From: Trueperaceae bacterium | GTDB taxonomy: Bacteria > Deinococcota > Deinococci > Deinococcales > Trueperaceae | DNA length: 64,000 nt | NCBI GenBank assembly: GCA_965213705.1 | Contig: OZ243913.1 | Location: 3,040,001 to 3,104,000 of the forward strand | Direction: 5' to 3' | Part shown: positions 6,284 through 53,600 of the stretch, in pieces | Numbering within the stretch: the first letter of the stretch is position 1 | Layout: each line of letters starts with the position of its first letter | The notes under the pieces: model-generated | The model's database searches: none | Told to the model about the DNA's origin: nothing | Seen by the model: the letters and a program-made list of their open reading frames with translations, nothing else | Made by a program: the position numbers and the translations under genes

Positions 6284-7604
6284 GTGGCTGGCGACCTACC
6301 TTTTGCACAGCACCCTGCTCCTCGGGGTGACACTGCTCGCCGTGCGGCTGCCCGGCTTGCGCCGCGCTTGCGTGCGCGACGCGCTGCTGCGTGCGGCCCT
6401 GGTCGCGGGCCTCGTCACCGCAACTTTGCAACCGTTGGCGGGCGTTCTGGTCATCCCGACCGAGGAGGCGACCACCGGAAGTTCAAAAGTAGCGGCTTCC
6501 GCCGTGACGAGCGCGCCCGACCCGGCGGCTGAACCGAAACGTTTTTCGGCCCCCCTTCCCAATCCCTCTCTCGTCTCCGAAGCGTTCGCGCCGCGACCCT
6601 CCACGACGCCACCCTTTTCCTGGAACACCCTTGCCACGCTGCTGTTCGGGGCGACGAGCGTTCTGACCCTGGTTCGGTTCGGCCAGGCCGGTTTCGCGCT
6701 GCGGCGCGTTTTGGTTCACAGTTCGCCTGTCGAGTTTGACGCGGCGGGGCTCGAGCCTTGGTTGCGCCGTCTGCGAGTGCTCGAGTCCGGCGTCGTCACC
6801 GTGCCGCTCGCGATTGCGCGGCGCACCGTGGTTTTGCCGCGGGGGTTGCGAAGCTCGAGCCTGCAGGTCGTTTTGGCCCACGAGGTCGCGCACCTGCGCC
6901 GCCGCGACCCCGCGTGGAACACCGGCTTGTCGCTCCTGAGCCACCTGCTCGCGTTTCAACCGCTCAACTTCGTCGCGCTGCGCGCCTGGCGCGGCGCGAG
7001 CGAGGAAATCTGCGACGCCCACGCGGTTCGGATAACCCGCGACCCGCTCGGTTTGGCGCAAAGCCTCCTCGACCTGACCCGCCGCAAAACGCACTCCCCC
7101 CTCATCGCGGTCGGGATGGCCGGCCGGACGCACCTGTCGCAGCGCGTCGAGGCGCTGTTGAAAGAGCGCGAAGTATTCGTGAAACCCGGCTACGTGGCGC
7201 TGCTCGTCGGAACGCTGCTGCTGTCGGGGAGTCTGCTGCCCGCCCTCACCTTTGCACAAGTCGGAACTTTGCAGGGGCTCGAGGTCGTTATCGACACCAA
7301 ACAGGCCAGACTCCACGATGAACTGACTGAGCTTTTGCGTGAAGCTGGACACCCCTTTGACCAACTGCGTATTACCGAGGCCCGCGCCTACTGCACGGGC
7401 GCAAAGAAGCCGGAAAGTAAAAGTCTGACGCCCGGAGTCGAATACCCTATGGCCTTGGTTCAGCCCAACGCCGACACAGAATTTTTCATTCTGCCGAGTT
7501 CCGAACAGGCCGTCCAAGCGTGTATCGAAAACCTCCTCACCGACCCCGAAGCGCTCGAGCGACTCAGAAACCCGTCGTCGCAGGATTTTTTACTTGGCAA
7601 CTGA
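6276..7604 (+). CDS. BlaR1-like M56 metallopeptidase with an unassigned C-terminal domain
   Basis: TM segments, HEVAHLRRRD zinc motif, EEICD, LSQRVEAL; paired with BlaI. Confidence 0.9.
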   Translation: MAEWLATYLLHSTLLLGVTLLAVRLPGLRRACVRDALLRAALVAGLVTATLQPLAGVLVIPTEEATTGSSKVAASAVTSAPDPAAEPKRFSAPLPNPSLVSEAFAPRPSTTPPFSWNTLATLLFGATSVLTLVRFGQAGFALRRVLVHSSPVEFDAAGLEPWLRRLRVLESGVVTVPLAIARRTVVLPRGLRSSSLQVVLAHEVAHLRRRDPAWNTGLSLLSHLLAFQPLNFVALRAWRGASEEICDAHAVRITRDPLGLAQSLLDLTRRKTHSPLIAVGMAGRTHLSQRVEALLKEREVFVKPGYVALLVGTLLLSGSLLPALTFAQVGTLQGLEVVIDTKQARLHDELTELLREAGHPFDQLRITEARAYCTGAKKPESKSLTPGVEYPMALVQPNADTEFFILPSSEQAVQACIENLLTDPEALERLRNPSSQDFLLGN

Positions 7605-10364: not shown

Positions 10365-10478
10365 ATCCCGGTCAGGATAGCATTCCGGCCGTTCCGCGCC
10401 GAACGGAGCGCGGCGAAGTGAAATAACCTTGTTTTCACCGTACCGCCAACGTCTTCTTTCGCCGTCGCTCAGAACGAC

Positions 10479-10509
10479 AAAAAGTCTCGAGGGTTTCCCC
10501 TCGAGACTT
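10479..10509 (-). terminator. Intrinsic terminator after the BMP gene
   Basis: Stem AAGTCTCGAGGG / CCCTCGAGACTT with a 4-nt loop, running into a T-tract on the minus strand. Confidence 0.75.
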
Positions 10510-10532
10510 CTGCGGCACAAACTTTTTACCCT

Positions 10533-31492: not shown

Positions 31493-33361
31493 CTACTGAA
31501 TTTTCACCCTGAACTGCACGTAGCCCGATTCACCGAACGACATCTTGTCCTTGTTGCAAACCCCGCCGGGAGTGGTGCCGTTGCCGCCGGTCAGCGTGAC
31601 GCGCAACGTGGTGCGGCCGGAGTTGGGCGCGGTACTGGCCCCGTAGTTCGGGCTGGCAACGTCTAAGTCGATAGGTTGGGCGGCGGCACCCGGACAGGTG
31701 AACTCCAGCTCGCCCGCGCCGTACTGGTTCGTTTGCAACGTCGTGTAAAAAGGCAACGCGTCCGTCAAGGAAATGTCGTAGCTGCTTCCTCCTTGGCTCA
31801 AGTAGGTGACGCGGTACTCGAGGACGTCCCCCGGCAAGCCGGTGTTGTTGGTCCTGAACACGCCGCCGCGCGTGACGTTGCGGACCTCCTTGACGAGTTC
31901 CAAAGCCGCGCGGGGGGTGTCGTCGCTGGCAACGACCGCCGTCGCCGAGGCGTAACTCGCCAGACCGTACACGTGGGTGTCGACGAAGGCCGAGTCGCCG
32001 AACGAAGAGCTGGTAAAGTTGCCCCAGGTGTGCCTGAACGCGCCCGACGCTTGCCCGACGACCGACACCTGCCCCAAAGGGCGCGTGCTGCCGCCGTTCC
32101 CCGCTTTGTTGGGGTTGAAACCGGTTAAGTCGTCCCAGTAGACCGGCACACCGTAGAGGCTTTTGTCGGTGTTGACGCCGTAAATGGTCAAGCCGTTCTG
32201 AGTACCGCCGCCGCTCGTCTCGGCGTCGCTGGCGACGAAGTGATACTCCCCGATGCGGCCCTGGACTTGGGCATGGTAAACGCCGTTCGGAAGTACAGCG
32301 TTGCGGTTGTCACGCCCGTTCCAAACGACCGAATTAACGCCCGCCGCCATCGTGCCGAACAGGTACACGTCGTCCACTTCGCTGCCGTCCACGACGACGC
32401 TGTTGCCGAACACCCCGTCCTGGTTGGCGTCGATGGTGATGAGGTAACGGCCCGGTACGTCGCTCGTAAACTTAAAGACCCCCGAGTCCTGCACCCCCGC
32501 CGAGCTGCCGGGCGAAATGGTCTGGTCGACGCCGCTGTTGTCGGTAAAGGTGATGTCGGAAAGTTGGGGTGCCGAGGTGGGCGGCGGCAGCACGTTCACG
32601 GGATAACCCAAGTAAATCGGATACTTTTCGCTCACGCTGTTGCCCGCCTGCGGCACGCTGTAGATAACGTTGGCGGCGTCCACCCCCTTGTCGTTCGCGA
32701 CAAGGTCGTAGCCGTAGCCTGCAAAGTTGTTGAGGTCGAGCTGCCACACGAAGTTGGTGTTGGGCCGCCCGCCCGGCACGAGGATGTAGTAGTCGGCGTC
32801 GGTCGACTTGTTTTCTGTAAACGCGCCCGCACTGTAAGCCCAGTTGTAAGCAAACACGCGCCCGGCGGCGAGTTTCGGGTTCGGCTTCGTCGCCGTGTTC
32901 GGCGTCACCGTGATGTCGAAGCGGCTGAGAAGGTCTGAGGTGGCGTTGTATAGTCGCAACTGGTAAGTACCGGCAGGCAGACCCGAGGTACTGGGCGACC
33001 ACTTGAAGGCGGTGGGCGGGTCGAGTTCGGTCGGATAGGTCGTCGCCGAAAAGCCGCAGAAACCGGTCTGGGTTTCTTTGAGGGCGTTGGGCGACTTGTA
33101 GTGCAACGTTGCGCCGTTCGCACTCCTGACCTCGAAGTAGACGTTGTCGTTCGAGCTGCTGCCGCGCCCGCACAAAGACACGTTCACGACCTCGGTGGCC
33201 GAGGTGAAAACGACGTATTGAGGGTGGGTAGCGGTCGCGAAGTTGGCCGCCGAAGAGTCGTACTCGTAAAGAGCTTGGGTTAGGCCGACCTGCCATGACC
33301 CTTCGGAAAAAGTGGTAGCACCAAACATAAAGGCCAGCAGACCCAAGCAAACCCGTACCAT
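31493..33361 (-). CDS. Secreted protein with C-terminal truncated DUF11 domain (putative tip adhesin)
   Basis: Hydrophobic N-terminus, beta-rich N-domain, DANQDG loop, WNGRD...LPNGVY (FlgD-like), then LELVKEV...PGDVLEYRV...LTDALP...VQFRVKIQ-stop. Confidence 0.75.
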   Translation of the reverse strand: MVRVCLGLLAFMFGATTFSEGSWQVGLTQALYEYDSSAANFATATHPQYVVFTSATEVVNVSLCGRGSSSNDNVYFEVRSANGATLHYKSPNALKETQTGFCGFSATTYPTELDPPTAFKWSPSTSGLPAGTYQLRLYNATSDLLSRFDITVTPNTATKPNPKLAAGRVFAYNWAYSAGAFTENKSTDADYYILVPGGRPNTNFVWQLDLNNFAGYGYDLVANDKGVDAANVIYSVPQAGNSVSEKYPIYLGYPVNVLPPPTSAPQLSDITFTDNSGVDQTISPGSSAGVQDSGVFKFTSDVPGRYLITIDANQDGVFGNSVVVDGSEVDDVYLFGTMAAGVNSVVWNGRDNRNAVLPNGVYHAQVQGRIGEYHFVASDAETSGGGTQNGLTIYGVNTDKSLYGVPVYWDDLTGFNPNKAGNGGSTRPLGQVSVVGQASGAFRHTWGNFTSSSFGDSAFVDTHVYGLASYASATAVVASDDTPRAALELVKEVRNVTRGGVFRTNNTGLPGDVLEYRVTYLSQGGSSYDISLTDALPFYTTLQTNQYGAGELEFTCPGAAAQPIDLDVASPNYGASTAPNSGRTTLRVTLTGGNGTTPGGVCNKDKMSFGESGYVQFRVKIQ

Positions 33362-36300
33362 TTAGTTGCCACCCCCCGTCGGCGCGGCGCGGCCGCAGGT
33401 CCACTGCTCGTCGAACACCGCGTCGAGCCGCACGAACACGCCGCTGCCGCCGTAAACCGCGCCGTAGTCGCGGTCCAGACCGCCCAGGTTGTAACCCGCC
33501 ACGCCGTAAACGCCGCAACCGAGGCGCTGTGAGACTTCCAGACCGACGCCGAAAGCGCGCTCTTGGACAGTCCAGTCGTTGAAAAGCCGGGCTTGAACCA
33601 GCACGTTGCCGCCCTGCCAAGCGTAAAAGCCGCCACCCACGTTGACGAGGTCTAAGTAGTTCTCCCCGACCAGGTAGCGGTAGGCGTAGCCGAAGCGCAG
33701 GTCGTAGCGCTCGCCGAGCGTCCAAGTCGCTCGAGAGTCGCCCCACACGCTGTCGCCCTGTCCTATACTGCCCCGTCCTGTGCCGCCTCCCCGGGACAGC
33801 GCACCGAACTGGGCTTCGTTGTTCGTGAGCAGGGCGAGGCGTTTGCCCCGGTAAGCGCCCGCGACGCCGAAACTCGCGCCCGAGCCCTGGGCGCTGTCGT
33901 ACAGGTAAGTGCCGGTCACGCTGCCGTAGAGACGGTCCGACAGGGCAAAGGTGCTGCCGCCGACAACGACGTGCTTCGAGGCGGCCGGGTTCCAGGAGAC
34001 TTCATAACGGAGCGCCGCGTCCACTGTGTCGGTGTCGTAGTTCGCGCCGGCGCGCACCGCGACCTGCGTGTCGGTTTGCGCGCCGCCCTGTACGCCGTCC
34101 GCGCTGGACAAGCCGCGGCGGTACTCCGCGCCGAACTGCAGGCTCAGGGTTTCGCTCAGCGGCAACGTCGTGTCCAGACCGAGACGCACCCGCCCGGCCG
34201 CCGCGCTCACCCCGCCCGGAAGTTCGTACTGCGCGGTCACGGTGGTGCTGCCGCCGGACAAGTTGCCGAGTGCGCGCGACGGGTCCGCGCAGTTCAGGGT
34301 GCGGCACAGACTCGCCCGGACGCGGTCGTGTTGCAGGGTCGCCTCGAGCCCCAGCAACAACGCGTTACTGTCGCCCCACACCAGTTCGTCGCTGAGGGTG
34401 AGGCTCAAAAACTCGAGCAGGGGAAAAGCGGCGCTGAACTGGGTAACGCTGCGCGCGTCCGCGCCCAGGCCCTGGCGGTGAACGACGCCCAAGCGGCTCC
34501 CCTGCCAACCGAACAGGTCATAAAGGTTGCCGCCGACCAGTGGACGCAGCAAACCGCCTTCTAAATTCGCCCCGAACTGCAGGTCGAAGCCCTCACCCCG
34601 GTACAGCCCGAGCGCGTCGGCGCTCAAGTCGGTGTTGCCCGCCGTGGCCGACAAACTGGTGCGCGCCGCCACGCTGAAAGCCGAGGAAAACGCGTAGCTT
34701 GCGGCGGCCTCCAACGTGTGGCCTGCCGCTCCCAGCGCGGTCGGCGAGCGGTAACCTGCCGACACGAAGCGCCAACCGGCTTCGGCGTTGAGCGCGTCGG
34801 CGCTGTAGAGCAACCGGGTCGTGACGGCCACGCCGCCGGAACTTTCGCTGACGCCGTACGCGACTTCGGCGTCGGCGCGGACACCGCTACCCTCGTAACT
34901 CGCCCCGCCCGCCACGACGCGGTTGTAGCTGAGGTCGCTGCTCGTTTCCTGCGCCACGCCGAGCCGAAACTTGGCGCCGCCCAGCCCGACCTCGGCCTGC
35001 GCGCCCGCTTGCAAGTAGCGCGCCGCGTTGCCTGCGGCCAAGGTGTAGCTGAGCCGCAAATAGTAGACGTCGCCGCGGGCGTCTACGAGGGGTACGGGCT
35101 TGAAAAGCTCGAGCAGGCCCGTCTCTTCGTTTATCCGGAAGTCCTTCAGGGGCACCAGGACGCGGGTCACCGGGTCGAGGTCGTCCTCGGGCACGCTCAC
35201 GCCGAGGCCGTCTTTTTTGACAACCTCGACGCGCAGCGTGTTGGGCTCAATGGGCGCGTCCGGCACGAAGCGCAGACTTGTCCCGTCGCTTTTCAGGTCG
35301 ACGACGCGCATGTCGGTGACACCGTTGAAGGCCGCGTAAGCGCGCACGCCGAAGTCCACGCCCTCGTGCGCGCCCACATAGACGCCGCTCAGGCCGGTGT
35401 AGAACCGGCCCAGGTCGAGAAAGCCGCTCAGCGGCGTCGTAAAGTCGCCGTACTGAAGGTAACTCTCGTCGCGTTCCAACCGTGCGTAGACCCCTTGGCG
35501 GCTCTCGGCCCCGTAGCTGGCCGCGCCGCTGCTGCCGGGCACGGGAAAAGCTTGATAAGGATTGCTGTCGGCGGGTCCCAAATCGGCAAACGGGTAGCGC
35601 GCCGCCAGGGTCAACAAATAGTCGCCGAGAACGCGGCCTCGAGCGAAAAAGCTGCCGCCCACGCCGAACTCAAACCCCTCACCGTAAGCCGCCCCGACGC
35701 TGCCCGTCCCGCTCACAAGCCAGGGGCGCAAGTTGCTCGTCACCTTTACCGTCTGGCTTTGAAACGTTTCACCCACCAAGACCCTGAGGACGACCTCGGT
35801 GGGTTCGGCGAGGGGCGCGAGCTTTAAGCGCGCGTGGCCGGCCTTCGAGCGAAGCTGAAACCCGACCTCCTCGCTGGCGTCTGCCGAAGCTAGGCCCGCA
35901 CCCTCGACCTCCAGGGTGACGAACCCGTCCAGCGTCGCGTTGCCCCAGGCGTCGGTCACGACGAGGTCCAGCGCGAGCGGCGTGGCCGAGTCGGCGACGA
36001 GCGGCGTCAGGGGCGTGAGGGTAAACCCGGCGGCAGGGCCGGAAAAATAGACGGTGACGCTGTCGCTGACAACCTCGCCGTCCAGGGCGCTCTCGAGCCG
36101 CACCTCGTTCGGGCCGGGCTGCAAGGGCACGCCGACGAAGTCGTAGGTTTGACGGTTCAGGTTGGGGTCGAAGACGCGCTGACCGACGGTGTCAGCGGCG
36201 ACGGGTTCGCCGTTCACCGTAAGGGTCACCTCGCTGTTCAAGGGCGTGTCCGTGCTCACCGTGACGCGGTCGCGCTCGCGCAGCACCAACCCGGGGGCCG

Positions 36301-38383
36301 GCGCCAGGATGACCGCCCCGACACGCTCGCGGGCCACCATGTTCGTCGCCGGACCGCTCTCACTCGCTTCGGCACCATATTCAACACCGAGCGGTTCGGC
36401 GCGGGTGTACAGCTCGAGCGCGTCTTCGCTCCCCAGCAACACTTCGGGCTCGGGCGTAAGACCTACCAGGCTGCTGTGGTCTTTGCCGAGACCCAAAAGA
36501 CCCTCGTGCAACACGGTAAAGCTCACCTGGCCGACCGCCGCCCCCGGCAGTTCGAACACGAGCGCGTCGTCCACGCCCTGCGGGTCGGCTGCCACTCGGC
36601 CGTTGACCGTCGCGCTGCCCGCGACGTAGCTGGCCCCCGCCGGCAACCGCTCGACTAACACCAGGCCGTCCAGCACCGGCAGGTCGTAGGCGGCGACGTC
36701 GACCACCACGGTCGTCGTCTGGTGGGGTTGGGGCAGTTCGGGCAGGGTTTCGACTTTGAACTGCAACAAGCCACTCGAGCCCGCCGGGACACCCTCAAAA
36801 CCTACTGAGTCGCAGTAGGGCGTGACCTCGAGCAAGCCCGTCCCCTCGACCACGCCCCGCACGGTGAGGTTGGCGGTGGCGCTGGCGGCTGCGGGGAGGG
36901 TCAGCGTCCGGGGCGCGTCGACCACCTCCGAACGGCCGCTCCCCTGTACGCCCAAACCGACGGTGACAGGTACGTGGAGCGGGTTGGTGACGGTAAAGTG
37001 AAGCGTCGTTTCCTCGCCTACATAAACCGGGCCGGCTGGGGGCGTCACCTTGGTCGTAAAGTCGGCGCGCATCACGGTGTCCTCGGCGACTCGCTCGAGT
37101 CCCGTTCCGTCCAACACCCCGCGCAAGGTCACCAGGGGCGGCGCGGCGGGCGTGAGGGTGACGGTATAAGAAACCGCGGTCGTCGCCCCCGGCTCCAAAC
37201 TTCCTTGCCACACCAGGTCGTTGCCCGAAACTGTAGCGCCCTCTTGCGCGACGAGTTGCAAGCCCTCGGGCAGCGCTTCGCGCAGCAGGTAGTCCCCGGC
37301 CGCCGCGCCGCCGTTCGTGACGCTCAAGGTGACCGTCAGGGTCTGACAAGGCGCCAGCAGTTCAGAACTCAGGGCACGTGTGAACCCGAGTTTGGGTTGC
37401 GGCGAGACCGAGACCTCAACCTGTGGCAGCTCGACGGGGCGTTTGGGCGTCACGGCGGCGCTTGGAACTGGCAGCGGCAGCGGGCGTTTGGGCGTCACCG
37501 TCACTTCCAGCGTTGGTAACTCGACGGGTTTGAGCGGCGCGACGAGTTGCGCGGCGGGCGTCAGGGTGACGCGCTGCGCCGCGCCGCCGCAGCGCACGAC
37601 GAAGCGCACCGCGTTCGTTTTTTGATACCGCCCCGTGGGCAGCGCGAGTTGCACCGTGTACAGGCCGGGCAAGCGGGGCAGCGCCTGGCTGACCGAAGCG
37701 CGGTCGCCGGACACCGCGAGTTGCAAGGTCACGGGTTGCAGGGTTACGGGTTGCAGGGTTACAGGTTGAAGGGTGCCCGAGGGCAGGCGCAGGCGGGCCG
37801 ACAGTTCGCCACGTCCGTCGCCGTCGTACAGCTCGAGCGCGCAAGCCCGGTGGCCTGCAATGTCGAAACTGAACGCGTCCGTCCAGGCTTCGCTGCTCAC
37901 GTTCACGGTAACGCTTTCGGCTTGCAAAGTCACGTCCGCCAGTTCGGTCTCGAGCTTGAGCAAGTAGACGTTTTTGCCGTTGCCGGCGACCTCGCTCCGC
38001 AAGGTGTAGCTTCCGGCCGCGGCCGGGCCCTCGAAAAAGGTCAGCCACCTAGAAGCGCCCAGACTGAAGCGCTCGCTCCTCAGCGTCGCGACGGTGGCAG
38101 ACCCGCCCCTGGACAGGGTAAAAGCGGCCTCGAGCGGGGCGGCGTCATAATGTTCGTCGCCGGGCTCGTCGAGGTCGATGTTGGGAGAGTAGACCGAGAG
38201 CTTGACCCAGGAGCTTTGCGGTAGGTCGAACACGACTTCGTCGCCGTCGGGTGCCCAGCGTAAAACCGTGCCCGCCGTCACCAGCGGCAGGTGAGTTCCG
38301 GCAGCCTGCGGCGCGTTTTGCGCCCACGCAAACGTGCCGAACAAGCTCAGCAGAAACAGGTACTTCAAGACAAGGTGCTTCAT
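33362..38383 (-). CDS. Large (about 1673 aa) exported protein with Ig/DUF11-like domains and a C-terminal beta-barrel-like region
   Basis: Start MKHLVLK (ATG 38383, ATGA overlap) plus signal peptide; LREALPEG and VERLPAGASYVAGS DUF11-like units; about 780 aa of alternating Gly/Tyr amphipathic strands. Confidence 0.8.
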   Translation of the reverse strand: MKHLVLKYLFLLSLFGTFAWAQNAPQAAGTHLPLVTAGTVLRWAPDGDEVVFDLPQSSWVKLSVYSPNIDLDEPGDEHYDAAPLEAAFTLSRGGSATVATLRSERFSLGASRWLTFFEGPAAAGSYTLRSEVAGNGKNVYLLKLETELADVTLQAESVTVNVSSEAWTDAFSFDIAGHRACALELYDGDGRGELSARLRLPSGTLQPVTLQPVTLQPVTLQLAVSGDRASVSQALPRLPGLYTVQLALPTGRYQKTNAVRFVVRCGGAAQRVTLTPAAQLVAPLKPVELPTLEVTVTPKRPLPLPVPSAAVTPKRPVELPQVEVSVSPQPKLGFTRALSSELLAPCQTLTVTLSVTNGGAAAGDYLLREALPEGLQLVAQEGATVSGNDLVWQGSLEPGATTAVSYTVTLTPAAPPLVTLRGVLDGTGLERVAEDTVMRADFTTKVTPPAGPVYVGEETTLHFTVTNPLHVPVTVGLGVQGSGRSEVVDAPRTLTLPAAASATANLTVRGVVEGTGLLEVTPYCDSVGFEGVPAGSSGLLQFKVETLPELPQPHQTTTVVVDVAAYDLPVLDGLVLVERLPAGASYVAGSATVNGRVAADPQGVDDALVFELPGAAVGQVSFTVLHEGLLGLGKDHSSLVGLTPEPEVLLGSEDALELYTRAEPLGVEYGAEASESGPATNMVARERVGAVILAPAPGLVLRERDRVTVSTDTPLNSEVTLTVNGEPVAADTVGQRVFDPNLNRQTYDFVGVPLQPGPNEVRLESALDGEVVSDSVTVYFSGPAAGFTLTPLTPLVADSATPLALDLVVTDAWGNATLDGFVTLEVEGAGLASADASEEVGFQLRSKAGHARLKLAPLAEPTEVVLRVLVGETFQSQTVKVTSNLRPWLVSGTGSVGAAYGEGFEFGVGGSFFARGRVLGDYLLTLAARYPFADLGPADSNPYQAFPVPGSSGAASYGAESRQGVYARLERDESYLQYGDFTTPLSGFLDLGRFYTGLSGVYVGAHEGVDFGVRAYAAFNGVTDMRVVDLKSDGTSLRFVPDAPIEPNTLRVEVVKKDGLGVSVPEDDLDPVTRVLVPLKDFRINEETGLLELFKPVPLVDARGDVYYLRLSYTLAAGNAARYLQAGAQAEVGLGGAKFRLGVAQETSSDLSYNRVVAGGASYEGSGVRADAEVAYGVSESSGGVAVTTRLLYSADALNAEAGWRFVSAGYRSPTALGAAGHTLEAAASYAFSSAFSVAARTSLSATAGNTDLSADALGLYRGEGFDLQFGANLEGGLLRPLVGGNLYDLFGWQGSRLGVVHRQGLGADARSVTQFSAAFPLLEFLSLTLSDELVWGDSNALLLGLEATLQHDRVRASLCRTLNCADPSRALGNLSGGSTTVTAQYELPGGVSAAAGRVRLGLDTTLPLSETLSLQFGAEYRRGLSSADGVQGGAQTDTQVAVRAGANYDTDTVDAALRYEVSWNPAASKHVVVGGSTFALSDRLYGSVTGTYLYDSAQGSGASFGVAGAYRGKRLALLTNNEAQFGALSRGGGTGRGSIGQGDSVWGDSRATWTLGERYDLRFGYAYRYLVGENYLDLVNVGGGFYAWQGGNVLVQARLFNDWTVQERAFGVGLEVSQRLGCGVYGVAGYNLGGLDRDYGAVYGGSGVFVRLDAVFDEQWTCGRAAPTGGGN

Positions 38384-39684
38384 CGGCGCACGTCCCAACT
38401 TAGTGTGGGCGCGGTGAGCAGCTTTTCGGGCGCGCCTGCAAACGCGACCCGGTAGCTGAGGGTGCGCGCGTAGCCCGCCGGAACGTCGCCGAGGGAGAGT
38501 TCGAGCCCCGCACCCGCCGGGGGTGTGCCGTCCGCGAACACCGGAGCCTCTAGCAAAATCGCTCCGGCGACAAGCGTCTCGCGCACGACCACGCCGCGCA
38601 GGGGTGCGCTCGAGCCGACCTGCAAGGTGACTAAAAATCCACCGGGTACGGGCTCGAGGCTTTTTTCGACCGCGAGCGGCCCCATCGCCACGTTCAACCT
38701 CTGCCGCACCGACAGCTCCGTCCGGGGCGGTTTGAAAGGAATGTCTCGCCGCGTGACGACGCCCGGCAGCAAGCGCACGCGCCACAGCCCCGCCTTGTCC
38801 TCGCCGACGCTCACCCCGAACAGCCGCGCGGGCGTGGTGCTGGTGTCGACCCGTAAGGCGGCCAGCGACGGCTCTACGTTTTGAAAGGTGTAACGCCCGA
38901 GTTCGTCGGTCACGGTTTCGCTGCCGTCGGACAGGTAAAGCCGCAAGTTGGGCACCGGGACGTCGTCAGCATCGTACAGGCCGTTCGCGTCCCGGTCGAC
39001 AAAGGCCGTACCGAGCAGCGCCGCGCGCTGCTCGAACAAACCCAGCTCGACGGGCGTCGTTGCCGTGTCCGCCGCGCCCGCCAGCACCAGGCCCGCACCG
39101 TCTTCGGCCAGGGCCTCGGCCCGGTTGACGAGGTCGGTCGCAAACAGGGCGGTAGGCAGCACGACGGCCTGAAAGGTGACCGTCACGACGTCGTTAGGAG
39201 CCAGGTCTACAAGCGTCCAGCGCAAGGTCGAACCGTCGACCTCGGCTTCCGCAGCGACGGTTGCGCCGTCCGGGCGCAGCACCCGGGCGCTGCCCGGAAC
39301 GTAGCGCAGCGCTGCGGGCAAGGTGTCGACGAGTTGTAACTTGCCGATGGACACGCTCTCGGGGTCGTTGGTGACCTGTAACTCGTAAGTCAGGGTGTCA
39401 CCGACGTTGACACGGCTCGGCACGGCGGTTTTTTGCAGGTCGATGAGGACGGGTTGAAAAGTCGTTACGACCTCGGGCGACAGGTCTTCGCGCTCGTCGC
39501 CGTTCCGCAGGTAGGTCGCGCGCGCCTGGTTGACGATTTTGTTGCCCGTCGGCTCAGCCGTTTGGTTGAAACCGGGCAGTGCGGGCGGGCGGGTCTCCGC
39601 GTCCTGGGCCGCCGCAAGGGTCAAGCCGGCCGACAGCAGGACGGGTAGCAGCGCGAGCAAGCTGCGGGAGACGACGGTGTACAT
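38380..39684 (-). CDS. Secreted DUF11 + SdrD-B-like protein (putative base/adaptor)
   Basis: Signal peptide; IVNQARATY donor-like segment; full DUF11 (LQKT...DTLP...LVNRA); GTAFVDRDANG...TDELGRYTF. Confidence 0.8.
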   Translation of the reverse strand: MYTVVSRSLLALLPVLLSAGLTLAAAQDAETRPPALPGFNQTAEPTGNKIVNQARATYLRNGDEREDLSPEVVTTFQPVLIDLQKTAVPSRVNVGDTLTYELQVTNDPESVSIGKLQLVDTLPAALRYVPGSARVLRPDGATVAAEAEVDGSTLRWTLVDLAPNDVVTVTFQAVVLPTALFATDLVNRAEALAEDGAGLVLAGAADTATTPVELGLFEQRAALLGTAFVDRDANGLYDADDVPVPNLRLYLSDGSETVTDELGRYTFQNVEPSLAALRVDTSTTPARLFGVSVGEDKAGLWRVRLLPGVVTRRDIPFKPPRTELSVRQRLNVAMGPLAVEKSLEPVPGGFLVTLQVGSSAPLRGVVVRETLVAGAILLEAPVFADGTPPAGAGLELSLGDVPAGYARTLSYRVAFAGAPEKLLTAPTLSWDVRR

Positions 39685-39784
39685 GCTGTTACCTTTCTCC
39701 TTCCGGGGCAAACGAATCCGGCAAACAAAGCCTCAAATAGGTGGGTTGAGCGGGTAGTCCAATAGGGGTCACAAGCAAGATAGC

Positions 39785-39811
39785 GGCTCCGTCCCTGACA
39801 GGGACGGAGCC
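39785..39811 (-). terminator. Strong hairpin after the major DUF11 gene (terminator or mRNA stabiliser)
   Basis: Inverted repeat GGCTCCGTCCCTG-A-CAGGGACGGAGCC; only a weak T-tract. Confidence 0.65.
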
Positions 39812-39821
39812 AAAGGCGTCG

Positions 39822-42605
39822 TTATTGCACTCGAACGACGAACACGAGGGTGATGGACTGGCCGGGCGTGAGCACGTCGGCGGTGGTGATGGTTCCGTCT
39901 TTGGTGGCCGGTGCCGTGTCCACACCGACGTAGATGCTCTGCCCGACGGTCAAGCTGGGCGCTGTAGAGGTCCAGGTCGAACCGTTCACCGAGTACAGCA
40001 CGGTACCGCCGGTCGCAGTCGTGGTCGCCGCGGCGGAGGTAAAGGTCGTGTAGCTCGGCAGCGGGTCGGACACCTTGACGTTGGTCAGGTTGCCCGAGCC
40101 GATGTTGGTGGCGACAACGGTGTACTCCAAATAGTCGCCGGGTTTGGCGGTCGCGCCGGAGGCGTCGAGCACTGCGCTAGCAGGACTGCACGTCGCGCTC
40201 GAGCAGGTCCGCACCGTCTTGACGAGCCTGAGTTCGCCCGACCTTACGAGGGTCCTGTCTTGCACGCTGGCCGTGGCCGTCGTGCCGCCCGGATAGGTTG
40301 CCGTCGCGGTCACGGTGACCGTCTCCTCAGCGCCGTCCGCTGCGCTGCCGGGCACGATGACGCGGACGTAAACCGTCCGGGACGCGCCCGCCGCAACGGT
40401 CACGCCGCTCAGCGACGAACTGAAGGTGTTGCCGTCAAGGGAGTACTGGTAGGTGAAAGCCTTGCCCGTCTGTTCCGGGATAGCCACGGTCGCGCTGGCG
40501 TTGCCGTTGTTGGTCAGGGTGTGGGTGTAGGTCACGACGCCGTTGGGCGAGGTGGTGGCGGTCTGGTTGGTGACAAAGGTGAGGGCGGTAACCGTGGTGA
40601 CCGTGACCGTCGTGGTGACGGAGTCAGTTCCGGTGCCGACCGGGTCGGTGGTGCTGGTAGCGGTAAAGGTGAGAGGGTTGTCGCCGGGTACAGCGCTGGC
40701 CGGAACGGTGACCTGGACGACGTAACAGGCTTTGGCACCGACGGCGAGCTGAGGCGTTTGGCTTACCGTGGGGCCGTTCGGGGCACCGGTGGCGCAGTCC
40801 GCTTGCACGAACACCGCGCTCCAACCCGCGGGCAGGTTCGGCACCGTGAGGTTGTAGCTGTCGGCCTGTTTGCCGTCGTTCAACACTTCGACCGGATAAG
40901 AAAGCGTCGTGCCGGGGGTGGTGCTCTGGTTGTCCGGGTTGTCGTTGGCATCGTTACGCGGGGATTCGCCACTAAACCCGCGCGTGGCGAGGTCGACGCT
41001 GTAGCCCTTGACGGGCGTGGGGACAACGTCTTTGGTGGCGTCGGTCGCCCCGCTCGAGGTCGAGGTGGCGGTCAGGGTGACGGTGGTACCCGCCGTGGCG
41101 CCGACCGGAACGGCGACCTTGACGACCACGTCTTGCGAAGCGCCCGGCGCGAGCGGCCCCAAGGTGCCGGACAGCGGGGTGACGCCGTCGGCCGCGTAAA
41201 GCGTCACGCTGTAGCCGTTGGCGCTGCTCGTGGTGGACAAGGTATAAGAACTGGTCGCGTTGCCGTTGTTGAGCACCGTGTGTCTGAAGGCCACGGTGTC
41301 GCCGGTATAGACGGGAACGGTGCTGGGGGCGGTAGCCGTCAGGGTTTGGGTGTCGGTATAGGGTGCGGCGGCGGTGTAACCGCCCGACAGGGTGACGGTC
41401 CAGGTTTTGCCCGTTGCCGGGTCGGTGTAAGTCGCGTTGCCCGACAGGGTGGGGTCGGCCGCTTTACCCGCAGGGCCGACGGCCACCCTGGCGTTTGCGT
41501 TGACCGTCACGCTGGTGGTGTTGGTGGGGGTCGTTTTGTTGGTGGCGGAGGTGGTGCCGGTAGCATAGGTGACGTTGGCGGTGTTGGTCACGGTCGTGTT
41601 GGCCGCCGCACCGGCAGCCACCGTGACGCTGAAGGTCATCGAGTAGTTCGTGCCTTGCGTAAAGAAAGCGCTTTTGGTGGGCGAGGTGGGATCGCGAATC
41701 ACGATACCGACGGCGTTGACGGTGCCCGTGGTGGGTACCGTGGTCGACCAAGTGGTGCCGTTGTTGGTCGAGTAAATAGGCTCAACCGCACCCTTGCCGG
41801 AGGTGCCGGACAGGCTGCCTGCAGTGAAGGTCTGGTTGGTGTTCAACACGTCGGTGACGATGATACCGACGCCCGTGAGACCGTAGCTCGAGAGGTCGAC
41901 GCCGTAAGCCGCCGAGCCGCCGTTGTTCGAACCCGCAACGGTGTAAGTAACGGTACCGCCCGCGGCGACCGTGCTCGTCGGGTTGGCCGTTTTGGTGGCG
42001 GTCAGGTTGCCCGCCGTGTTGACGACGGCCCTGGCCCAGTTGTTGGTGTCGGTGACGGCCGTGTTGCCGGCCGAGGTGCCGGTGATGTTTAGAAGCGCGT
42101 TTTGGTTGTTGGTGGCGGTGCCGGGCAAGGTACCCGCGACAATCAAACAGACTGAGGCATCTGCATTGAGGGTAACGCTTGTTACAACCGGGTCGCCCGC
42201 GACGCTGCCGTCACAACCCGCGTCCCGGTAGATGGTCACGCTGCTCAGGTCGAAATTGTCGGTCGTCGGCTGCACGTTTGCCAGGTTGAAGGTATCACTG
42301 CCGTTGCCGGTGTTGGTCAAAATATAGTTGAAATACACAGGTGCACCCGGCAGCGCGCTTTTGGTTTGGCCCGGCGCGGCTTCGGTGCCGTCGGGCGTGA
42401 TGGTGAGGCTGTAGACTTGCTGCACGATGGTAGTGACCGGGTTAGAGAACGTCGTCTTGGGCGTGCCCCCCGAGACGTAAGTCGCCGAGGCGGTGTTGGT
42501 TATCGGCGTGTCCTTGGGCGTGCCGGCGGCGAAAGCCAAACCGAACACGCTCAAAAAGAGGCCGAACAACGCGGTTCGGCTCGAGCGGTTGAAAGACGGG
42601 GTCAA
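39822..42605 (-). CDS. Thr-rich secreted multi-Ig DUF11 protein, about 927 aa (putative major filament subunit)
   Basis: GGAGG then TTG at 42605 (alternative ATG 42626); signal peptide ending AFA; AGTP..ITNTASATY; four Ig repeats with N-x-G-N-like motifs; one complete DUF11; C-terminal truncated DUF11 ending LVFVVRVQ. Confidence 0.85.
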   Translation of the reverse strand: MTPSFNRSSRTALFGLFLSVFGLAFAAGTPKDTPITNTASATYVSGGTPKTTFSNPVTTIVQQVYSLTITPDGTEAAPGQTKSALPGAPVYFNYILTNTGNGSDTFNLANVQPTTDNFDLSSVTIYRDAGCDGSVAGDPVVTSVTLNADASVCLIVAGTLPGTATNNQNALLNITGTSAGNTAVTDTNNWARAVVNTAGNLTATKTANPTSTVAAGGTVTYTVAGSNNGGSAAYGVDLSSYGLTGVGIIVTDVLNTNQTFTAGSLSGTSGKGAVEPIYSTNNGTTWSTTVPTTGTVNAVGIVIRDPTSPTKSAFFTQGTNYSMTFSVTVAAGAAANTTVTNTANVTYATGTTSATNKTTPTNTTSVTVNANARVAVGPAGKAADPTLSGNATYTDPATGKTWTVTLSGGYTAAAPYTDTQTLTATAPSTVPVYTGDTVAFRHTVLNNGNATSSYTLSTTSSANGYSVTLYAADGVTPLSGTLGPLAPGASQDVVVKVAVPVGATAGTTVTLTATSTSSGATDATKDVVPTPVKGYSVDLATRGFSGESPRNDANDNPDNQSTTPGTTLSYPVEVLNDGKQADSYNLTVPNLPAGWSAVFVQADCATGAPNGPTVSQTPQLAVGAKACYVVQVTVPASAVPGDNPLTFTATSTTDPVGTGTDSVTTTVTVTTVTALTFVTNQTATTSPNGVVTYTHTLTNNGNASATVAIPEQTGKAFTYQYSLDGNTFSSSLSGVTVAAGASRTVYVRVIVPGSAADGAEETVTVTATATYPGGTTATASVQDRTLVRSGELRLVKTVRTCSSATCSPASAVLDASGATAKPGDYLEYTVVATNIGSGNLTNVKVSDPLPSYTTFTSAAATTTATGGTVLYSVNGSTWTSTAPSLTVGQSIYVGVDTAPATKDGTITTADVLTPGQSITLVFVVRVQ

Positions 42606-42628
42606 AGTGTTACCTCCAAAAGACATCG

Positions 42629-43216
42629 TTAAAGAACCTCGACGCGGTAGACGAGGTTGTGTTGGGCGCCGGGCGGCAGCGCTTCTTGCAGGGTCCAGCG
42701 AACGCCTGTGTACTGGTCCGGGTTGGCGACGACTCGCTTCTGTTCGCCCGCTTCGTTGGTGACGGTCATCATGACGGGCGCGGCCATAAAGACGGGCGAG
42801 CCGTCGGCGGCAAGCTCGGCCGAAAACTCGGTCGTGACCAGGTCGCCGCCGCTCGCCGTGTCGGCCAAGTAGGCGGTGGTCGCAGGCACCGGCCCCGCCA
42901 CCACGACGGCGCCGGCCGGTAAGGTTTCGGCGCCGTCGTTGCGGACCAGAACCCGGTATTCGACCACTTGGCCGGGCCTGGCCTCGGCGGCGGCGGTGAA
43001 CGTCTCGGTCACGGTGCCGTCGTCCTGGGTAACGGTCGTTACTATGAACGCTTCCAACGTCACGGTGACCGGCTCGGCTTGGGCGGCGGCCCAGCCCGTC
43101 GCGGCCCAAGCCACTACCAGGGCGAACAAAAAGACCCACGTCGAACGCCCGACCCTGGAACTACTGACCCTGGAACCATCGACCCTAGAAATATCGACCC
43201 TGTGACTCTCGACCAT
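42629..43216 (-). CDS. Small secreted single-domain DUF11-like protein
   Basis: GAGGAGG RBS; signal peptide; ARPGQVVEYRVLVRN...GPVP...VRWTL...LVYRVEVL-stop. Confidence 0.8.
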   Translation of the reverse strand: MVESHRVDISRVDGSRVSSSRVGRSTWVFLFALVVAWAATGWAAAQAEPVTVTLEAFIVTTVTQDDGTVTETFTAAAEARPGQVVEYRVLVRNDGAETLPAGAVVVAGPVPATTAYLADTASGGDLVTTEFSAELAADGSPVFMAAPVMMTVTNEAGEQKRVVANPDQYTGVRWTLQEALPPGAQHNLVYRVEVL

Positions 43217-47424: not shown

Positions 47425-47477
47425 GACGCGGTTCGCGACTGCTTTCTCATGGATTGGATGTTATCTTAACCTTGCGT

Positions 47478-47605
47478 GGGCAGGCGTAGCGCCGACAGGT
47501 GCCACGCCTGCCCTGCCGTTGTAGATAACCTTTGTAGACAACCGTTGTGGACAGCCGTTGTAAGTCGTCGTTGTAGACAGTTGCTGTCAAGAGCCGCTGT
47601 AGAAA
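47478..47605. repeat. Hairpin followed by seven 13-bp tandem units upstream of the TamB-like gene
   Basis: GGGCAGGCGT...ACGCCTGCCC (47478-47513); units near consensus gccgttgtagaca (47515-47605). Confidence 0.8.
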
Positions 47606-47622
47606 GCCGCACAGACCCCCTT

Positions 47623-50600
47623 ATGGACGTTCAAACACCCGCGCCCACCGACCATCCTGGGCCGCCGCGTTTTCTAAAGTGGAGCCTGCCCGTCCTCGTC
47701 GCGGGTTTGCTGCTGGCGTTGTACTTTGCGCCGCAACTGCCCGCGGTGCGAGGGTGGCTGTTGTCGCAAGTTGACAGCGCGGTCCCGGCGGGCTACAGCC
47801 TCGACTACAGCAGCAGCGGCGGCAACCTGTGGAGCGGTATCGAGTTCGGCGGGGCGAACGTGGACGGTCCCGGTTTGGCGGTCGAGGCCGACACGCTCAG
47901 CCTGGGCTACTCTTTGCCCGCGCTGCTCACGGGCAGACTGCCCGTGTCGGTGACGGCCGAAGGTGTCCGCGGCAGGGTCGCGCTCAAAGACCTCACTGTA
48001 GGAGGTTCCGGCAGAGGTTCCAACGCCGCGCCCGTCCGACCCGTGTTGCGCGACCTGAGCCTCAAAGACGTCAACCTCCGGCTTGTCGACGTGCCCTACA
48101 CCCTGCCCGACCTGAACGTGACAAACCTGCAAGCACGGCCCGTAGGCGACGCCTTTCGCGCCGAGGCCACCCTGAAAACGGCCGAGGGCGAGGCCGTCGT
48201 CAACGGCACGCTGGCCCTGAACCCGCTCCGCTTTACCGCCGACGTGCCCCGCCTGGACGCGCGCGTGGCGCGGCAGTGGTGGCGGGGCATTACCGGCGGC
48301 ACCCTGGCCGGCACGGTGAGCTACGCGGACGGCCGCCTGCGCGCCGACGCCAGCCTTCGAGACGGCAGTCTGGACTTTTTGGGCGAGACCGCGTCGGGTA
48401 TTCAGGGCGACGTCGCTTATGAGAACGCCACCGTCCGCGCCGACCTGACCGGCGCCGCCCTGGGCGGCGAGGTGACGGCCGCCGGCAGCGTGGACGTCGC
48501 GGCGCTGCGCTGGTCAGCCGAGGCGGTCGGCACCGTGAACTTGCGCGACGCCGTCCTGTGGCTCGCCGCCGGGCGCGTGCCGGTCGACGTGTCCGACGTA
48601 GGGCTGAGCGGCAGCGCTCAAACCCGGCTGAGCGCTGAGGGCTGGCGCGACTTCACGCTCGACGGCGCGGCCACGGGCGCGGGCGACGTGGCGGGCTACG
48701 CGCTCGAGGATTTACAGGTCGACTACAGTTTTGACAGTGATACAGGCGCCCGCGTCGACGCCACGGCAAACTTGGCCGGGGGCGACGTCACGGCCAGCCT
48801 CACGCCGCAAGCGGACGGCTTCTCGTTCGACTTCGGCGGTGCAGGCGTGCAGCTGTCACCCGCGGTCAGGGCCGACCTAGAAGTCGCCCTGACAAGGTCG
48901 CCGGGCGGCCTCGCCGGCACCACCGAGGCCGCGCTGACGGGCACCCTCCTCGACCAAGCCCTGAACGTGACCTTGGGCGGCGTGTTCAAGCCGGACGTCG
49001 TCCAGGCGAGTGTCGACGGAACCGCGCTCGGCGGGCCGCTCACGGGCGCGGGCTCGCTCCAGGGCGGCGCTGTGGCGGCGCGGCTCGAGCTGCCGGGGGC
49101 GGTCCTGCCCGGCCTGAAACGTCCGGTGGGTCTTGAACTCAGCGCGACCGGCCCCGCCGACGCCCTCCCCCTCACTTTCACCCTCACGACGCCGGAGCCG
49201 ACCGGGCTGGTGCTCGGGCCGCTCACCGTTCCCAAAGACATCGGGGGGCAGGCCAGCGCCACGCTGCGCGGGACGCGCCTCGAGGACCTCAGCGGCCGCT
49301 TCGGCACCTTGACCGTGGCGGGCGACCTGGGCCCGGACGCTTCCGGCAACTTGAGCTACAGCTTGGCGAACACGCCCCTAAGCGGCGTCGTACAGGGTGA
49401 GGCGAGCGTCGACGGCGTGTTGACGCTCGCCGACAGGGTGCTCGAAAGCAAGGCGACGGTGACAAGTTCGGACCTGCGGCTAGCCAACCTGACCTTGCCG
49501 CCGCTCGCCGCCGCCGAGCTTGAAGTCAGGCGTGCCGACACCTGGACGGCGACGCTCACAGCGCCGGACGAAACCTTCAAGCTCGGTTACGGCGGCGGTG
49601 ATGACGGCGGTGACGACGGTGACGCTTTGCGCGTGACCACGGCGGACTATCCGGTCACGGTCGCCGGGCAAGCTCTCACCCTCACGGGAACCGGTAAGCT
49701 GGCGGCGGCGGACCCCTTGGGCTCGCTCGACCTCGCGCTGAACACGCAAACCCCGTTCGGCGACGTGACGCTGACGGGCGGGGCGGCGGCGCTCCGATAC
49801 ACCCTCGAGACCCCGACCCTCGGCCCCGGTTCCCAACTGACGGGCACGGCAAACCTGCTCGAGCGCACCACGAGCTTGAGCGGGCGGCTCGGCGCTTTGG
49901 ACGTTGCCGGGACGGGTCGTTGGGACGACAGCTTGGACGGGACGCTCACCGTCGAGGGCGGCGGCGAAAAACTCGAGCTGCGCGTTCGCGGCCAACCGGC
50001 CCAGCCCAGTTTGGCGCTGACCGGGCGACTGCCGCTGAACCTCGTCGGCGACCTCTTCGGCGTGACAGCGAGCGGCACCGTGAACGCCGACCTGGTGCGC
50101 ACCGGCAGCCTCTATCAAGAAGGTCGTTATCGAGACGGCCGTTATCAAGGGAGCGCCGAGGTGGTGGGCACCCTTGCCTCGGTGCCTGTCGGGTTGCGTT
50201 TTTTAGGCGAGGGCGACACCCTCGGAGTGACGGGCGACGTGACGCCGTTTGCCGTGCCGCTCAGTCTCAGCGGTCGACTGCTTCCCACCATTGAGCTGAA
50301 CGGGGCGAGCGAACTGGGCCGTGTCGCCCTGGTTGAAACCGGCTTGACGGGCGCGGGTACCGTACCCGGCGGGACGTTTGCAGGTTTTACGCTCGAGCCG
50401 CAACCGTGGACGCTGGCAGGCGACTTGGCCGCAGGCACGGCGACGCTGTCGCTGCCCGAAACCGCTTCGAGCGTGAGGGTCGACCGGGGCGCGGCGGGCT
50501 GGCGGGCCACCCTCGACCTCGCCCAAACCCTTGCGCGGGGCGACAGCGCGGTGAGCGTCGAGACGAGCGGCACCTTGGCCGCCGGGTCTGCGGTGCGGGG

Positions 50601-53600
50601 AGAAGTCCGGCTGCAGACGCCCGCGGGCGACGCGACGCTGCCGTTGACGGGGTCTCTGGAGGGGCTCGAGCTGGGCGGCACCCTGCCCGCGCCGGTCGCC
50701 GCAAGCTTGCTCGGGTCACCCGTGGCTGTAACCGGCGACCTGGAGGTTGCGGCTCGGGCGCAGGTTGGCGGCGGGTTGACCTACGCCGCCACAGCCGCCT
50801 GGCAAACGCCCCGCAGCACGCTGACGGCGCAGCTTGACGGCGCCGGCACAAACTTCAATATCACGGCGGCGGGCGGCGGCCTCGACCTCCGTTACGGCCC
50901 CGACGGGTTGAGCGTGCAGGCCGACGGTTTTCAGCTCGAGCCGTTTCTGGGCGCGGCGGGCGTGCAGGGCAGTCTGAACGGCTCTTTGCGGCGCACGCTC
51001 ACGTTGAACGAAACCGGGGCGGGTTGGGACGGGGTGCTCACCTTGGACACGCGTGCGCCCGTTGCGCTCCAAGCAGTGCTCAGCGGCGCGGGTGAACGGC
51101 TCGAGCTGTCCACCGACTACGACGCGGACGCCCTGAACGCCCGAGCCGTAGGTACGCTCCTGCCCACGCTCGACCTCGCGCTGAGCGGCGCGTTCCGCGA
51201 CTTGGCGACGCTCCAGGGGCGGGTTGGCGGCACCCTCACCCGGCCCGCCGTGGCCGCCACACTGACGACGAAACCGCTGGACGTTCAGGGGGGCCTCGAG
51301 CTGAGCGTTCCCGCTCAAACCCTGACGCTCACGGCCGACTTCGGAAACGGCTTGAACGCGCCCGGTTTGAACGCGACCGGCCTAAACGCGACGCTGCAGG
51401 GTGACGCGCTCGAGCTTGAACTTTCCGAAGGCGGTTTGCAAGGCGCGCTCAGGCTGCCCTTCACCTTGGCGGGCGCAGAGGAAGTGTTGAGCGCGGAAGT
51501 CGGCGGCACCCTCAGTCGTCCGAGCTTGGACGGCACCTTGGTGGGCAACGTCGCCAGCGGCCCGGTCAGGGTCGCCGACGGCCGCTTGACGACGACCCTG
51601 AACCTCAGGCCTTCACCCTTACTGGGCGGCCTGCCGCTCGACGCGCCCGCGCTCACGGTGGCGTTCACGGGGGCGTTCGAGGGCGCGCGTGACCTGGCTT
51701 GGCAGGCGCAGGTCGAAGGTTCGGCCCAGTTCCAGGGTCTGCCGCTGGCGCTGGGCGGCACGCTTTCGGGTGAGGGCGCAAGCTACCGCGGAACCGTGAG
51801 CGCGACCCTCGCCGGGGAGAGCGTGCCGCTCACCGTGGCTGGGCAAGGTAGCGCGGTGCAGGTGCAAGCGAACCTCGAGGCTTTCAGCTTGGCGAGCTTG
51901 GCACCCGCCCTGCCCGTTCCCGTGACCGGGACGCTCGGCGGCACCCTCGACCTCGACACGCGCGCCCCACAACTCCTGTCGTTCGACCTCACAGCTTCGG
52001 GAGCGGTGCGGGGCCGCGGGTTCGACCTTACGGCCGAACGTACGGAAGGTGAACTGAGCGTCACAGGCGACGTTGCGGGCGCACCCTTCACGCTCGGTGA
52101 CGAAACGGGCGCTTACTCGTTCACCCTCGGCTCGAGTACGGACCTCTCGAGTTTGGCGGGACGGCTCGAGCTTGCCCCCGCGCTCCGTTTAGACGTCTCA
52201 GGACAGTATCTTGCGCAACCCCTCACGGCGACGGCGGCTTACGCGACTTCGGACGCAAGCTCTGGTACGGTGACCCCCGACACGGCGACCCCTGACACAG
52301 CAACCTGGGCGGCGGCGGTCGGCGACGCGACCGTTTCGGGCGACGCCAGGCGGGTCGGCGGCGTTTGGACGTTGCAAAGCGTCGTGAACAGTCCGGCCGA
52401 CGGCGTTTTGCCCTTCCAGGGGCGAGCCGAGGTCGCGGCGCGGGTCGAGGGCGGCAACGTCACCTTGGACACGCTCACGGCGAACACGGCGCTCGGCGGG
52501 CGCGCGGTCGGGCTCGAGCTGTCCGGCCCCGCCTGGCCCGCGCCCGAGCTGACGGGCGGGCTGGAGGTCGCCGGTTTCGGGCGCGGCGACCTCACCTTGA
52601 GCGGCGCCGCGCCCGGTTACGACGTCGCCCTGAACTACGACGGGCTCGTGTTAGCCGCCGCACTCACTCCGGGGTTGGCCGTTGAGACCGTCACGCTCGG
52701 CGGTGCGGGCACCTTGCCCGTCGGCGGGGGCGTCCCCCTGACCTCCGACTTGACCTGGACGGCGGCGGGCTTCAGCGGCAAGGCCGGCGCCGACCTCTCG
52801 TTCGGCAACCTCAGCGCCAACCTGACCGCCGTCGGCACCGGCCCGCTCGGGGTGGCGGGGCGCGCGACGTACCGGGGCCGGGGCGAAAGTCAGGAGGTGG
52901 CGCGGCTCGAGCTGGCCCTTTCCGCCAACCCCTTCGCCCGGCCCGGTCTGAACGGCCACCTCGCCTTGCAGGGTGACGTTGGACGGTTTCTACCCGCTTA
53001 CCGAACCCTCACCGCGACGCCGACGACCCTCACTGGACGGCTCGACGTTTCGGGCGAGGTGACGCGGCCGCGCCTCAGCGGCCCCGTGACCCTGCAGGGC
53101 GCGCTCGCTGCGGCGGGAGCGTTCGTTTGGGACGGGGCTGTCGGGCGGCTCGAGCTGTCCGGGGACGGTCTGGACGCGACCGCGGCGCTCCGCGCGAGCG
53201 GCTGGAGCGTCGCGGCGCGGGCCGACGGCCTCGACCTCACACCTCTCCTGCCCCAACTCGACGCACCCCGGCTCGGCGCGACGGTCACCGGCTCCGGCAG
53301 CTGGGGCGAGCCCGTCCTGCAAGTCGACGGCCTCACCCTGCAAACGCCGAACGGCTCGCTTGCCGGCGACTTGACCTACGACGGGGCGTTGAGCGGGCGG
53401 CTCGAGACCGACCTCGCCCTCGGCGACCTGAACCTCGGCCCGGCGCTCCGGGGACGCCTGACGGGCGACCTCTTGCTAACCGGCGATTCGGGCGGCTCCG
53501 ACCTCACCGGGACGTTGCAAGCGGTCTCGCTCGGGCTTGACGAGCAACCCGCCGTGCTTGACGGGCAAAGCGCCGGGCTTGACGGCACTTTGGTGGTGAG

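Follow-up and report, generated by a model that had tools for sequence, protein, structure and literature searches.

An operon of five genes on the minus strand of the window (the whole stretch of DNA analysed, 64,000 nucleotides from a Trueperaceae bacterium) is read here, with good confidence, as encoding a donor-hairpin pilus whose subunits are probably linked by isopeptide bonds between chains. The reading turns on the domain family DUF11 (PF01345), since renamed CLIPPER, which forms the stalks of surface adhesins and in which a Lys715-Asn806 bond lies beside Asp748 in PDB 9IFR (PMC12617251). The family is present in split form in the operon: the proteins that we call A and D end one hairpin early with the Lys and Asp retained, and A and B begin with the missing, Asn-bearing hairpin. 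As DUF11 is an isopeptide domain, such a split would make the link between subunits covalent. Taken at its widest, the proposal is of a natural pilus of the SpyTag/SpyCatcher type, covalent but enzyme-free, widespread in two-membrane bacteria, restrained by an unreactive decoy acceptor, and served by a new barrel family of the outer membrane that also exports giant single-chain adhesins; for this larger picture we put the chances slightly above even.

Organization of the operon

The genes run in the order E, A, B, C, D, as confirmed by an open reading frame check of the window (Table 1), and are separated by 2 nt (E/A) and 137 nt (A/B), overlap in ATGA (B/C, -4) or abut (C/D, 0). The first-pass annotation had described five co-oriented, tightly spaced frames, and its coordinates agree with ours except at the start of A, which we place at the ATG at 42626, seven codons before the TTG at 42605 given earlier. 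The signal peptides of the operon proteins were judged by eye. A frameshift artefact as the source of the truncated domains was rejected, given five clean reading frames and relatives that end alike; named relatives come from Thermus, Meiothermus, Oceanithermus, Deinococcus and Trueperaceae, which points to Deinococcota as the phylum. DUF11/PF01345 is found above the Pfam cut-off in A, B and C, and E scores above the TIGR01451 cut-off. The acceptor of D is called by neither Pfam nor NCBIfam for DUF11/TIGR01451, yet it aligns with the other acceptors and carries K491/D534. Elsewhere in the same genome (G000:C1:3654197-3663594, plus strand), a cluster of lipoprotein-like genes combines complete DUF11 domains with ends that resemble leucine-rich repeats by eye; as far as tested, it is unrelated to the split-domain system.

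Table 1. Features of the window discussed in the text
Feature	Position	Strand	Description
E	42629-43216	-	195 aa ORF; small secreted protein, a CLIPPER-like acceptor lacking both reactive residues (Lys, Asp); candidate donor-hairpin cap
A	39822-42626	-	934 aa ORF, start ATG; predicted shaft subunit with donor hairpin, Ig domains, one complete CLIPPER and C-terminal acceptor
A, donor hairpin	42411-42527	-	Residues 34-72, Asn44, right after the predicted signal-peptide cut
A, acceptor	39825-40241	-	Residues 796-934, Lys803 and Asp854, last two strands absent
RNA stem-loop	39785-39811	-	12-bp stem, 11 bases past the A stop codon; from RNA folding
B	38380-39684	-	434 aa ORF; predicted base with donor hairpin of residues 46-77 containing Asn52, complete CLIPPER, SdrD_B-like domain and Lys-bearing C-terminal domain
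B, C-terminal domain	38383-38712	-	Residues 325-434; probable docking partner of C 545-665
C	33362-38383	-	1673 aa ORF; Ig and DUF11-like domains, then a large predicted outer-membrane beta-barrel at about 885-1660
D	31493-33361	-	622 aa ORF; predicted tip with variable N-terminal region, FlgD_ig match, acceptor of residues 485-622 containing K491/D534, and no donor
TamB-domain gene	47476-57927	+	3483-codon ORF, TamB domain at the C-terminus; 4 kb from the operon
PAS-GGDEF-EAL gene	3247-4980	+	Ordinary
Helicase gene	7590-10520	-	UvrD-type helicase with PD-(D/E)XK nuclease domain; ordinary

A CLIPPER domain divided into donor and acceptor

The Lys and the Asp of 9IFR are both matched in the alignment with the internal domain of B (E 0.012; our count of the Asp is one off the paper's 748), and complete triads are present in A (K212/D259/N348, within residues 206-378) and in B (K85/D120/N187). 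A reference profile of 144 positions was made from 24 complete domains of B proteins, and the C-terminal domain of A stops at its position 101. The N-terminal piece of A falls on positions 106-134 (E 0.019 in a search of 10 targets) and that of B on positions 105-120 (E 0.071), matches that are weak alone, and the Asn of each piece is in register with the complete domain. Placed on one profile, the donor and acceptor pieces are thus complementary. That A unites a donor and an acceptor, as first proposed, is borne out by these extents, with N44 at one terminus and K803 and D854 at the other; D as an acceptor without a donor stands as well. B had been taken for a donor only, which is wrong: the last 110 residues of B form a CLIPPER-like domain that contains Lys341.

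The division is conserved. Across 120 aligned rows of A relatives, N44 stands in 112 (7 of the others being gaps), K803 in 116 and D854 in 117; of the 111 relatives covering all three positions, 108 retain the full set, so that the donor/acceptor pattern anticipated for homologous operons is indeed found there. The same end column as in A is shared by 116 of the 117 rows with D854. Judged on these alignments, the split triad and the common end point of A are beyond chance. Covariation between donor and acceptor columns gave no usable signal in an underpowered set of 139 A-type proteins (effective number 41), and searches of PDB sequences with A and with the A profile returned no match.

The predicted shaft subunit and its RNA hairpin

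A stem-loop lies behind A. Scored over the 60 bases behind each gene (z < -2 against mononucleotide shuffles), a strong hairpin follows A in 26 of 29 cases, E in 1 of 22, B in 1 of 25 and C in 4 of 28, a comparison that is uneven in that E and B are followed mostly by coding sequence; the whole A/B gap, folded alone as a 141-nt piece, reaches z -1.7. Control of subunit ratios by an RNA hairpin is known from pilus operons, and a hairpin behind A is what would be expected of a high-copy subunit. A is therefore likely to be the abundant subunit, and the stem-loop likely stabilises or terminates an E-A message so as to give an excess of A.

A-type open frames are multi-domain and span about 670-1360 aa, with a compact form of 336 residues in Novosphingobium. 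One locus (L054) holds two A-type genes in tandem, and another (L082) an apparent second acceptor-bearing gene between E and B. By its tag order, DR_B0037 of D. radiodurans may be an A orthologue, and it was left uncounted. In one paper, DR_B0037 is among the supernatant proteins of a D. radiodurans tamB mutant.

Predicted base, barrel and tip

The first-pass annotation had also assigned the roles of tip, barrel, base and shaft; the domain split and gene order that recur in three phyla, the co-occurrence of donor and barrel in 22 of 22 genomes and the hairpin behind A all speak for that assignment. In B, the SdrD_B-like match falls below the cut-off. Of the 39 aligned B proteins, all 39 have Lys341 in the C-terminal domain and 38 have Asp or Glu at 369; one further strand, T-D-P-x-L-x-W, follows the domain. 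The 545-665 piece of C is present in all 37 loci in which B and C are separate. In the 3 of 40 loci where they are fused, residues 83-319 of B are joined to C from 689 onward, and both pieces are missing (matches of the docking profiles in the three fusions fall on the internal CLIPPER and SdrD_B domains of B, and were read as absence). That both pieces are present when the proteins are separate and gone when they are fused suggests a docking pair, and residues 325-434 of B probably dock on 545-665 of C. B-C fusions occur on two proteobacterial plasmids as well, and the cyanobacterial B proteins are without the C-terminal docking domain.

The predicted outer-membrane barrel of C (about 885-1660) draws no Pfam match at E up to 10 over residues 885-1673. 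Its profile, run against PDB sequences at the same limit, meets only VDAC barrels (E 4e-4), and its Atlas neighbours, at 0.97, include outer-membrane clusters, one of them a named outer membrane protein. The N-terminal regions of D differ between loci, and an Atlas search with that of the window found unnamed clusters only; D-type acceptors have both Lys and Asp in 13 of 13 aligned sequences, which were picked by eye.

E, a candidate cap

E is homologous to the acceptor of A and co-terminal with it (probability 98.6). Its AlphaFold2 model, built from 108 sequences, is a single domain of high confidence (pLDDT 96.9) that ends at strand F. The model aligns with 9IFR over residues 19-109 of 123 (91 aligned, Z 8.4, rmsd 2.8), and with the CnaA-type domains of RrgB over 187-307, Asn318 lying beyond, and of SpaD over 182-289, Asn299 lying beyond (Asn numbering from Table 1 of PMC12617251); it covers the solved CnaA-type domains only as far as the strand before the Asn. 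The Z-scores, 6.7-8.4, are tied with those of unrelated Ig-like folds, and so demonstrate the extent of the domain and not its identity; the top structural rows hold CLIPPER, CnaA pilins and generic Ig folds, with no PapD or usher entry among the 50 best matches listed. Asp stands at the catalytic column in only 5 of 108 relatives, and the Lys column, in strand register, holds Leu, Met, Val or Ile in 100 of 108 (Lys is found in the neighbouring column in 12 of 108), which upholds the earlier description of E as an acceptor without Lys and Asp.

The E family reaches beyond the fibre. It was found in 117 of the 128 genomes of the Trueperaceae-family set; among the 81 that are at least 90% complete, which are kin and not independent and include one genome (G324) flagged as unpublished, at least two copies are present in 20 of the 22 donor-positive genomes and exactly one copy in 56 of the 59 donor-negative ones. 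In five closed genomes E occurs without A, and none of the three of these tested for the barrel has one. The lone gene sits among housekeeping genes. A second, stand-alone E also lies outside the window in the same genome (G000:C1:3358437-3359003, minus strand). A lone E in donor-less genomes indicates that the fold has a use apart from the fibre, which brings a capping role down to about an even chance. Of the roles first proposed, the chaperone-like one is the weakest: the operon copy of E tracks the fibre, as that role would have it, but the lone copy in donor-less genomes goes against it. That E is a cap holding donor hairpins we rate, tentatively, a shade under even.

Distribution of the operon and its two locus classes

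With the C-terminal 992 residues of C as query, 215 of the 364 genomes of the phylum were matched. We fetched 40 of roughly 320 barrel matches, chosen on long contigs and from five families, with neighbouring genes not a criterion. B adjoins C or is fused to it in 39 of the 40, the remaining locus being cut by a contig end. A gene with donor plus acceptor is present in 31 of the 40, the polymer-type loci (28 by script and 3 by eye, two of the latter having A on the opposite strand and one having the donor in a separate short frame). A donor was also recognised in B at every one of these loci, 28 times by profile and 3 by eye. E belongs to the locus in 25 of the 31; the other 6, without E nearby, count against a simple reading, and all six genomes have E elsewhere. 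A gene with an acceptor and no donor turned up in 17 of the 40, in fetches ending about 5 kb past C. A synteny survey, suggested as a check when the operon was first described, found the split and the order E-A-B-C-(D) recurring across the phylum, in cyanobacteria and in proteobacteria.

The operon is patchy and often on plasmids. All five genes are intact on pTT27 of T. thermophilus HB8 (TTH_RS10905-10925; presumably the old locus tags TTHB179-183), and D. radiodurans has the roles of A to D, with broken frames in the record fetched. The same roles are found on plasmid records of Synechococcus NIES-970, Kovacikia and Novosphingobium, of Acinetobacter haemolyticus, with A in pieces, and of Pacificitalea, where no D was seen. 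A scan of the genome collection with the A acceptor gave 4 loci only, so that breadth beyond the phylum rests on the plasmid records. Within the 81 Trueperaceae-family genomes described above, donors were detected in 22, all of which have the barrel (20 by single-protein search, 2 by profile); one fragmented genome has a barrel without a detected donor. The pTT27 locus differs between strains of T. thermophilus (L076, L077): HB8 has the intact operon and HB27 is left with C together with the last part of B and a fragment of D, both versions lying upstream of a type I CRISPR-Cas locus. The two form a natural strain pair for comparison.

A second class, 8 of the 40 loci, pairs a large B with C and lacks A, E and any detected donor; three of the eight have B truncated by the limits of the fetch and one has it broken, and three are close relatives. 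Loci of this two-gene form, a giant DUF11/SdrD_B adhesin lacking a donor plus the barrel, are L044, L045, L046, L048, L056, L083, L084 and L085. The form is known from Nitratireductor, Eleftheria and Croceibacterium too, whose B ends in an annotated OmpA domain; with the head of B outside, its C-terminus would lie in the periplasm. A giant B with C, but without A, E or donor, implies that C needs no polymer and that the two form a stand-alone display module, possibly an undescribed display route for single-chain adhesins.

Proposed mechanism and alternative readings

From the sequences we infer polymerisation, export through C and a filament, which may proceed as follows. All five proteins would be exported to the periplasm, and the Asn-bearing N-terminal hairpin of one subunit would complete the truncated C-terminal CLIPPER of the next; Lys, Asp and Asn would thereby be reunited, and a spontaneous isopeptide bond would lock the two chains. 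D would start the chain and many copies of A would be added at its base, giving the order D-A(n)-B; B would supply the last hairpin and anchor the fibre on C through the C-terminal domains, with C serving as outer-membrane exit and anchor. E may bind free donor hairpins without reacting with them, the opposite of the logic of PapD.

The giant B on C with which 8 of the 40 loci, and those of Nitratireductor, Eleftheria and Croceibacterium, manage would also suit a short fixed adhesin of B, one or few A and D on C, in effect a giant adhesin in pieces and no long pilus, and so would the large, multi-domain build of A. We regard this as unlikely: A has donor and acceptor in nearly all of its relatives (108 of 111), permitting self-repetition, the RNA hairpin is specific to A, and the A of Novosphingobium is compact, with an open frame of only 336 residues. 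Less probable again is a polymer that never leaves the envelope and serves there as a barrel-bound scaffold, periplasmic or associated with the S-layer, with no surface pilus. The variable N-termini of D look like adhesin heads, the operon occurs patchily, in 22 of the 81 family genomes, and often on plasmids, and CLIPPER domains are known as surface-adhesin stalks (PMC12617251), all of which tell against such a scaffold, although lone E copies in housekeeping contexts and OmpA-type domains with B or C in proteobacterial loci would fit it.

The confident model of E without a donor shows that a folded structure can be predicted for a truncated domain, as it should be if such domains were stable alone, or if A closed on itself with its own donor in its own acceptor, leaving separate secreted adhesins. 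This we hold to be the least probable of the alternatives. A donor in B without a matching acceptor, and an acceptor in D without a donor, imply at least some pairing between chains, and no donor was found in the B proteins of loci that lack A, D and E.

If the donor-hairpin pilus is real, it would be a new class of pilus served by an outer-membrane export family of its own, the barrel alone reaching 215 of the 364 genomes of the phylum as well as cyanobacteria and proteobacteria. It would offer a function for many genes annotated as DUF11 or hypothetical, and its donor/acceptor pairs would be natural protein-ligation tags, partly thermophilic.

Comparison with known fibre systems

Covalent pili are known from Gram-positive bacteria, where they are made by way of sortase. 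An enzyme-free covalent pilus in diderms has no description in the literature searched, and no published account of a split-CLIPPER pilus was found in a search whose scope took in few subscription journals. Type 1 pili, arranged as FimH-FimG-FimF-FimA(n)-FimI on FimD with FimC (PMC12122975), resemble the operon in having a tip, a repeated rod, a terminating anchor and an outer-membrane platform in one operon, and in completing incomplete Ig folds with the N-terminus of a neighbour, all of which is here predicted from sequence. They differ in that the operon uses the CLIPPER fold, a two-strand donor, multi-domain subunits and a predicted covalent lock, and in that its small protein is an acceptor mimic and not a strand donor. 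Usher (PapC/FimD), PapD, pilin and sortase families had no match in the five proteins in Pfam or NCBIfam, in line with the first-pass remark that no PapC, PapD or sortase-like sequence was recognisable, and above cut-off E matches DUF11-type families only; membership of the chaperone-usher class was rejected for want of any usher or PapD-family sequence.

CLIPPER adhesins share the family and the Lys-Asp-Asn triad, of which A and B hold complete copies, but their bonds lie within one chain (PMC12617251), whereas here the triad appears to be divided between chains; the word 'donor' does not occur in that paper. Other papers on DUF11 deal with haloarchaeal tafi, a single-chain grappling-hook protein and a signal-peptide screen.

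The sortase pili (RrgB, SpaD, BcpA) are alike in their covalent chain and multi-domain pilins, and their CnaA-type domains neighbour E; unlike them, the operon has no sorting signal and no sortase gene, and its chains end at an acceptor strand, the C-termini of A, D and E all lying at a beta-strand. A sortase-assembled pilus was rejected on the lack of a sorting signal and of any sortase family among the five proteins. Type V pili are built from lipoprotein precursors matured by a protease, with a C-terminal donor; such a pilus was rejected since the donor here is N-terminal and, by eye, A, B, C and E have no Cys where their signal peptides are predicted to be cut. A TasA/BsaA fibre was also rejected, the five proteins having no SipW family and only a sub-threshold TIGR04090 match in E (15.7 bits against a cut-off of 60).

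Two fibres nonetheless come close in principle. BsaA of Clostridium perfringens likewise undergoes donor-strand exchange and then forms a self-catalysed intermolecular Asn-Lys bond, as backed by mutants, but it is TasA-like, SipW-processed and Gram-positive, with a Glu catalyst and no outer-membrane barrel (bioRxiv 2024.11.04.621531). The archaeal thread Saci_0406 joins donor-strand complementation to a proposed intermolecular isopeptide bond, but this runs from the N-terminal amine to an Asn of subunit n+2, in another fold and in a barrel-less archaeon (PMC9715654). Together they are precedent for a donor strand with a self-made intermolecular bond. Because by sequence the operon fits none of the chaperone-usher, sortase, type V and TasA fibres, and yet its predicted working is like that of chaperone-usher pili, we rate the system encoded by the operon as a new class.
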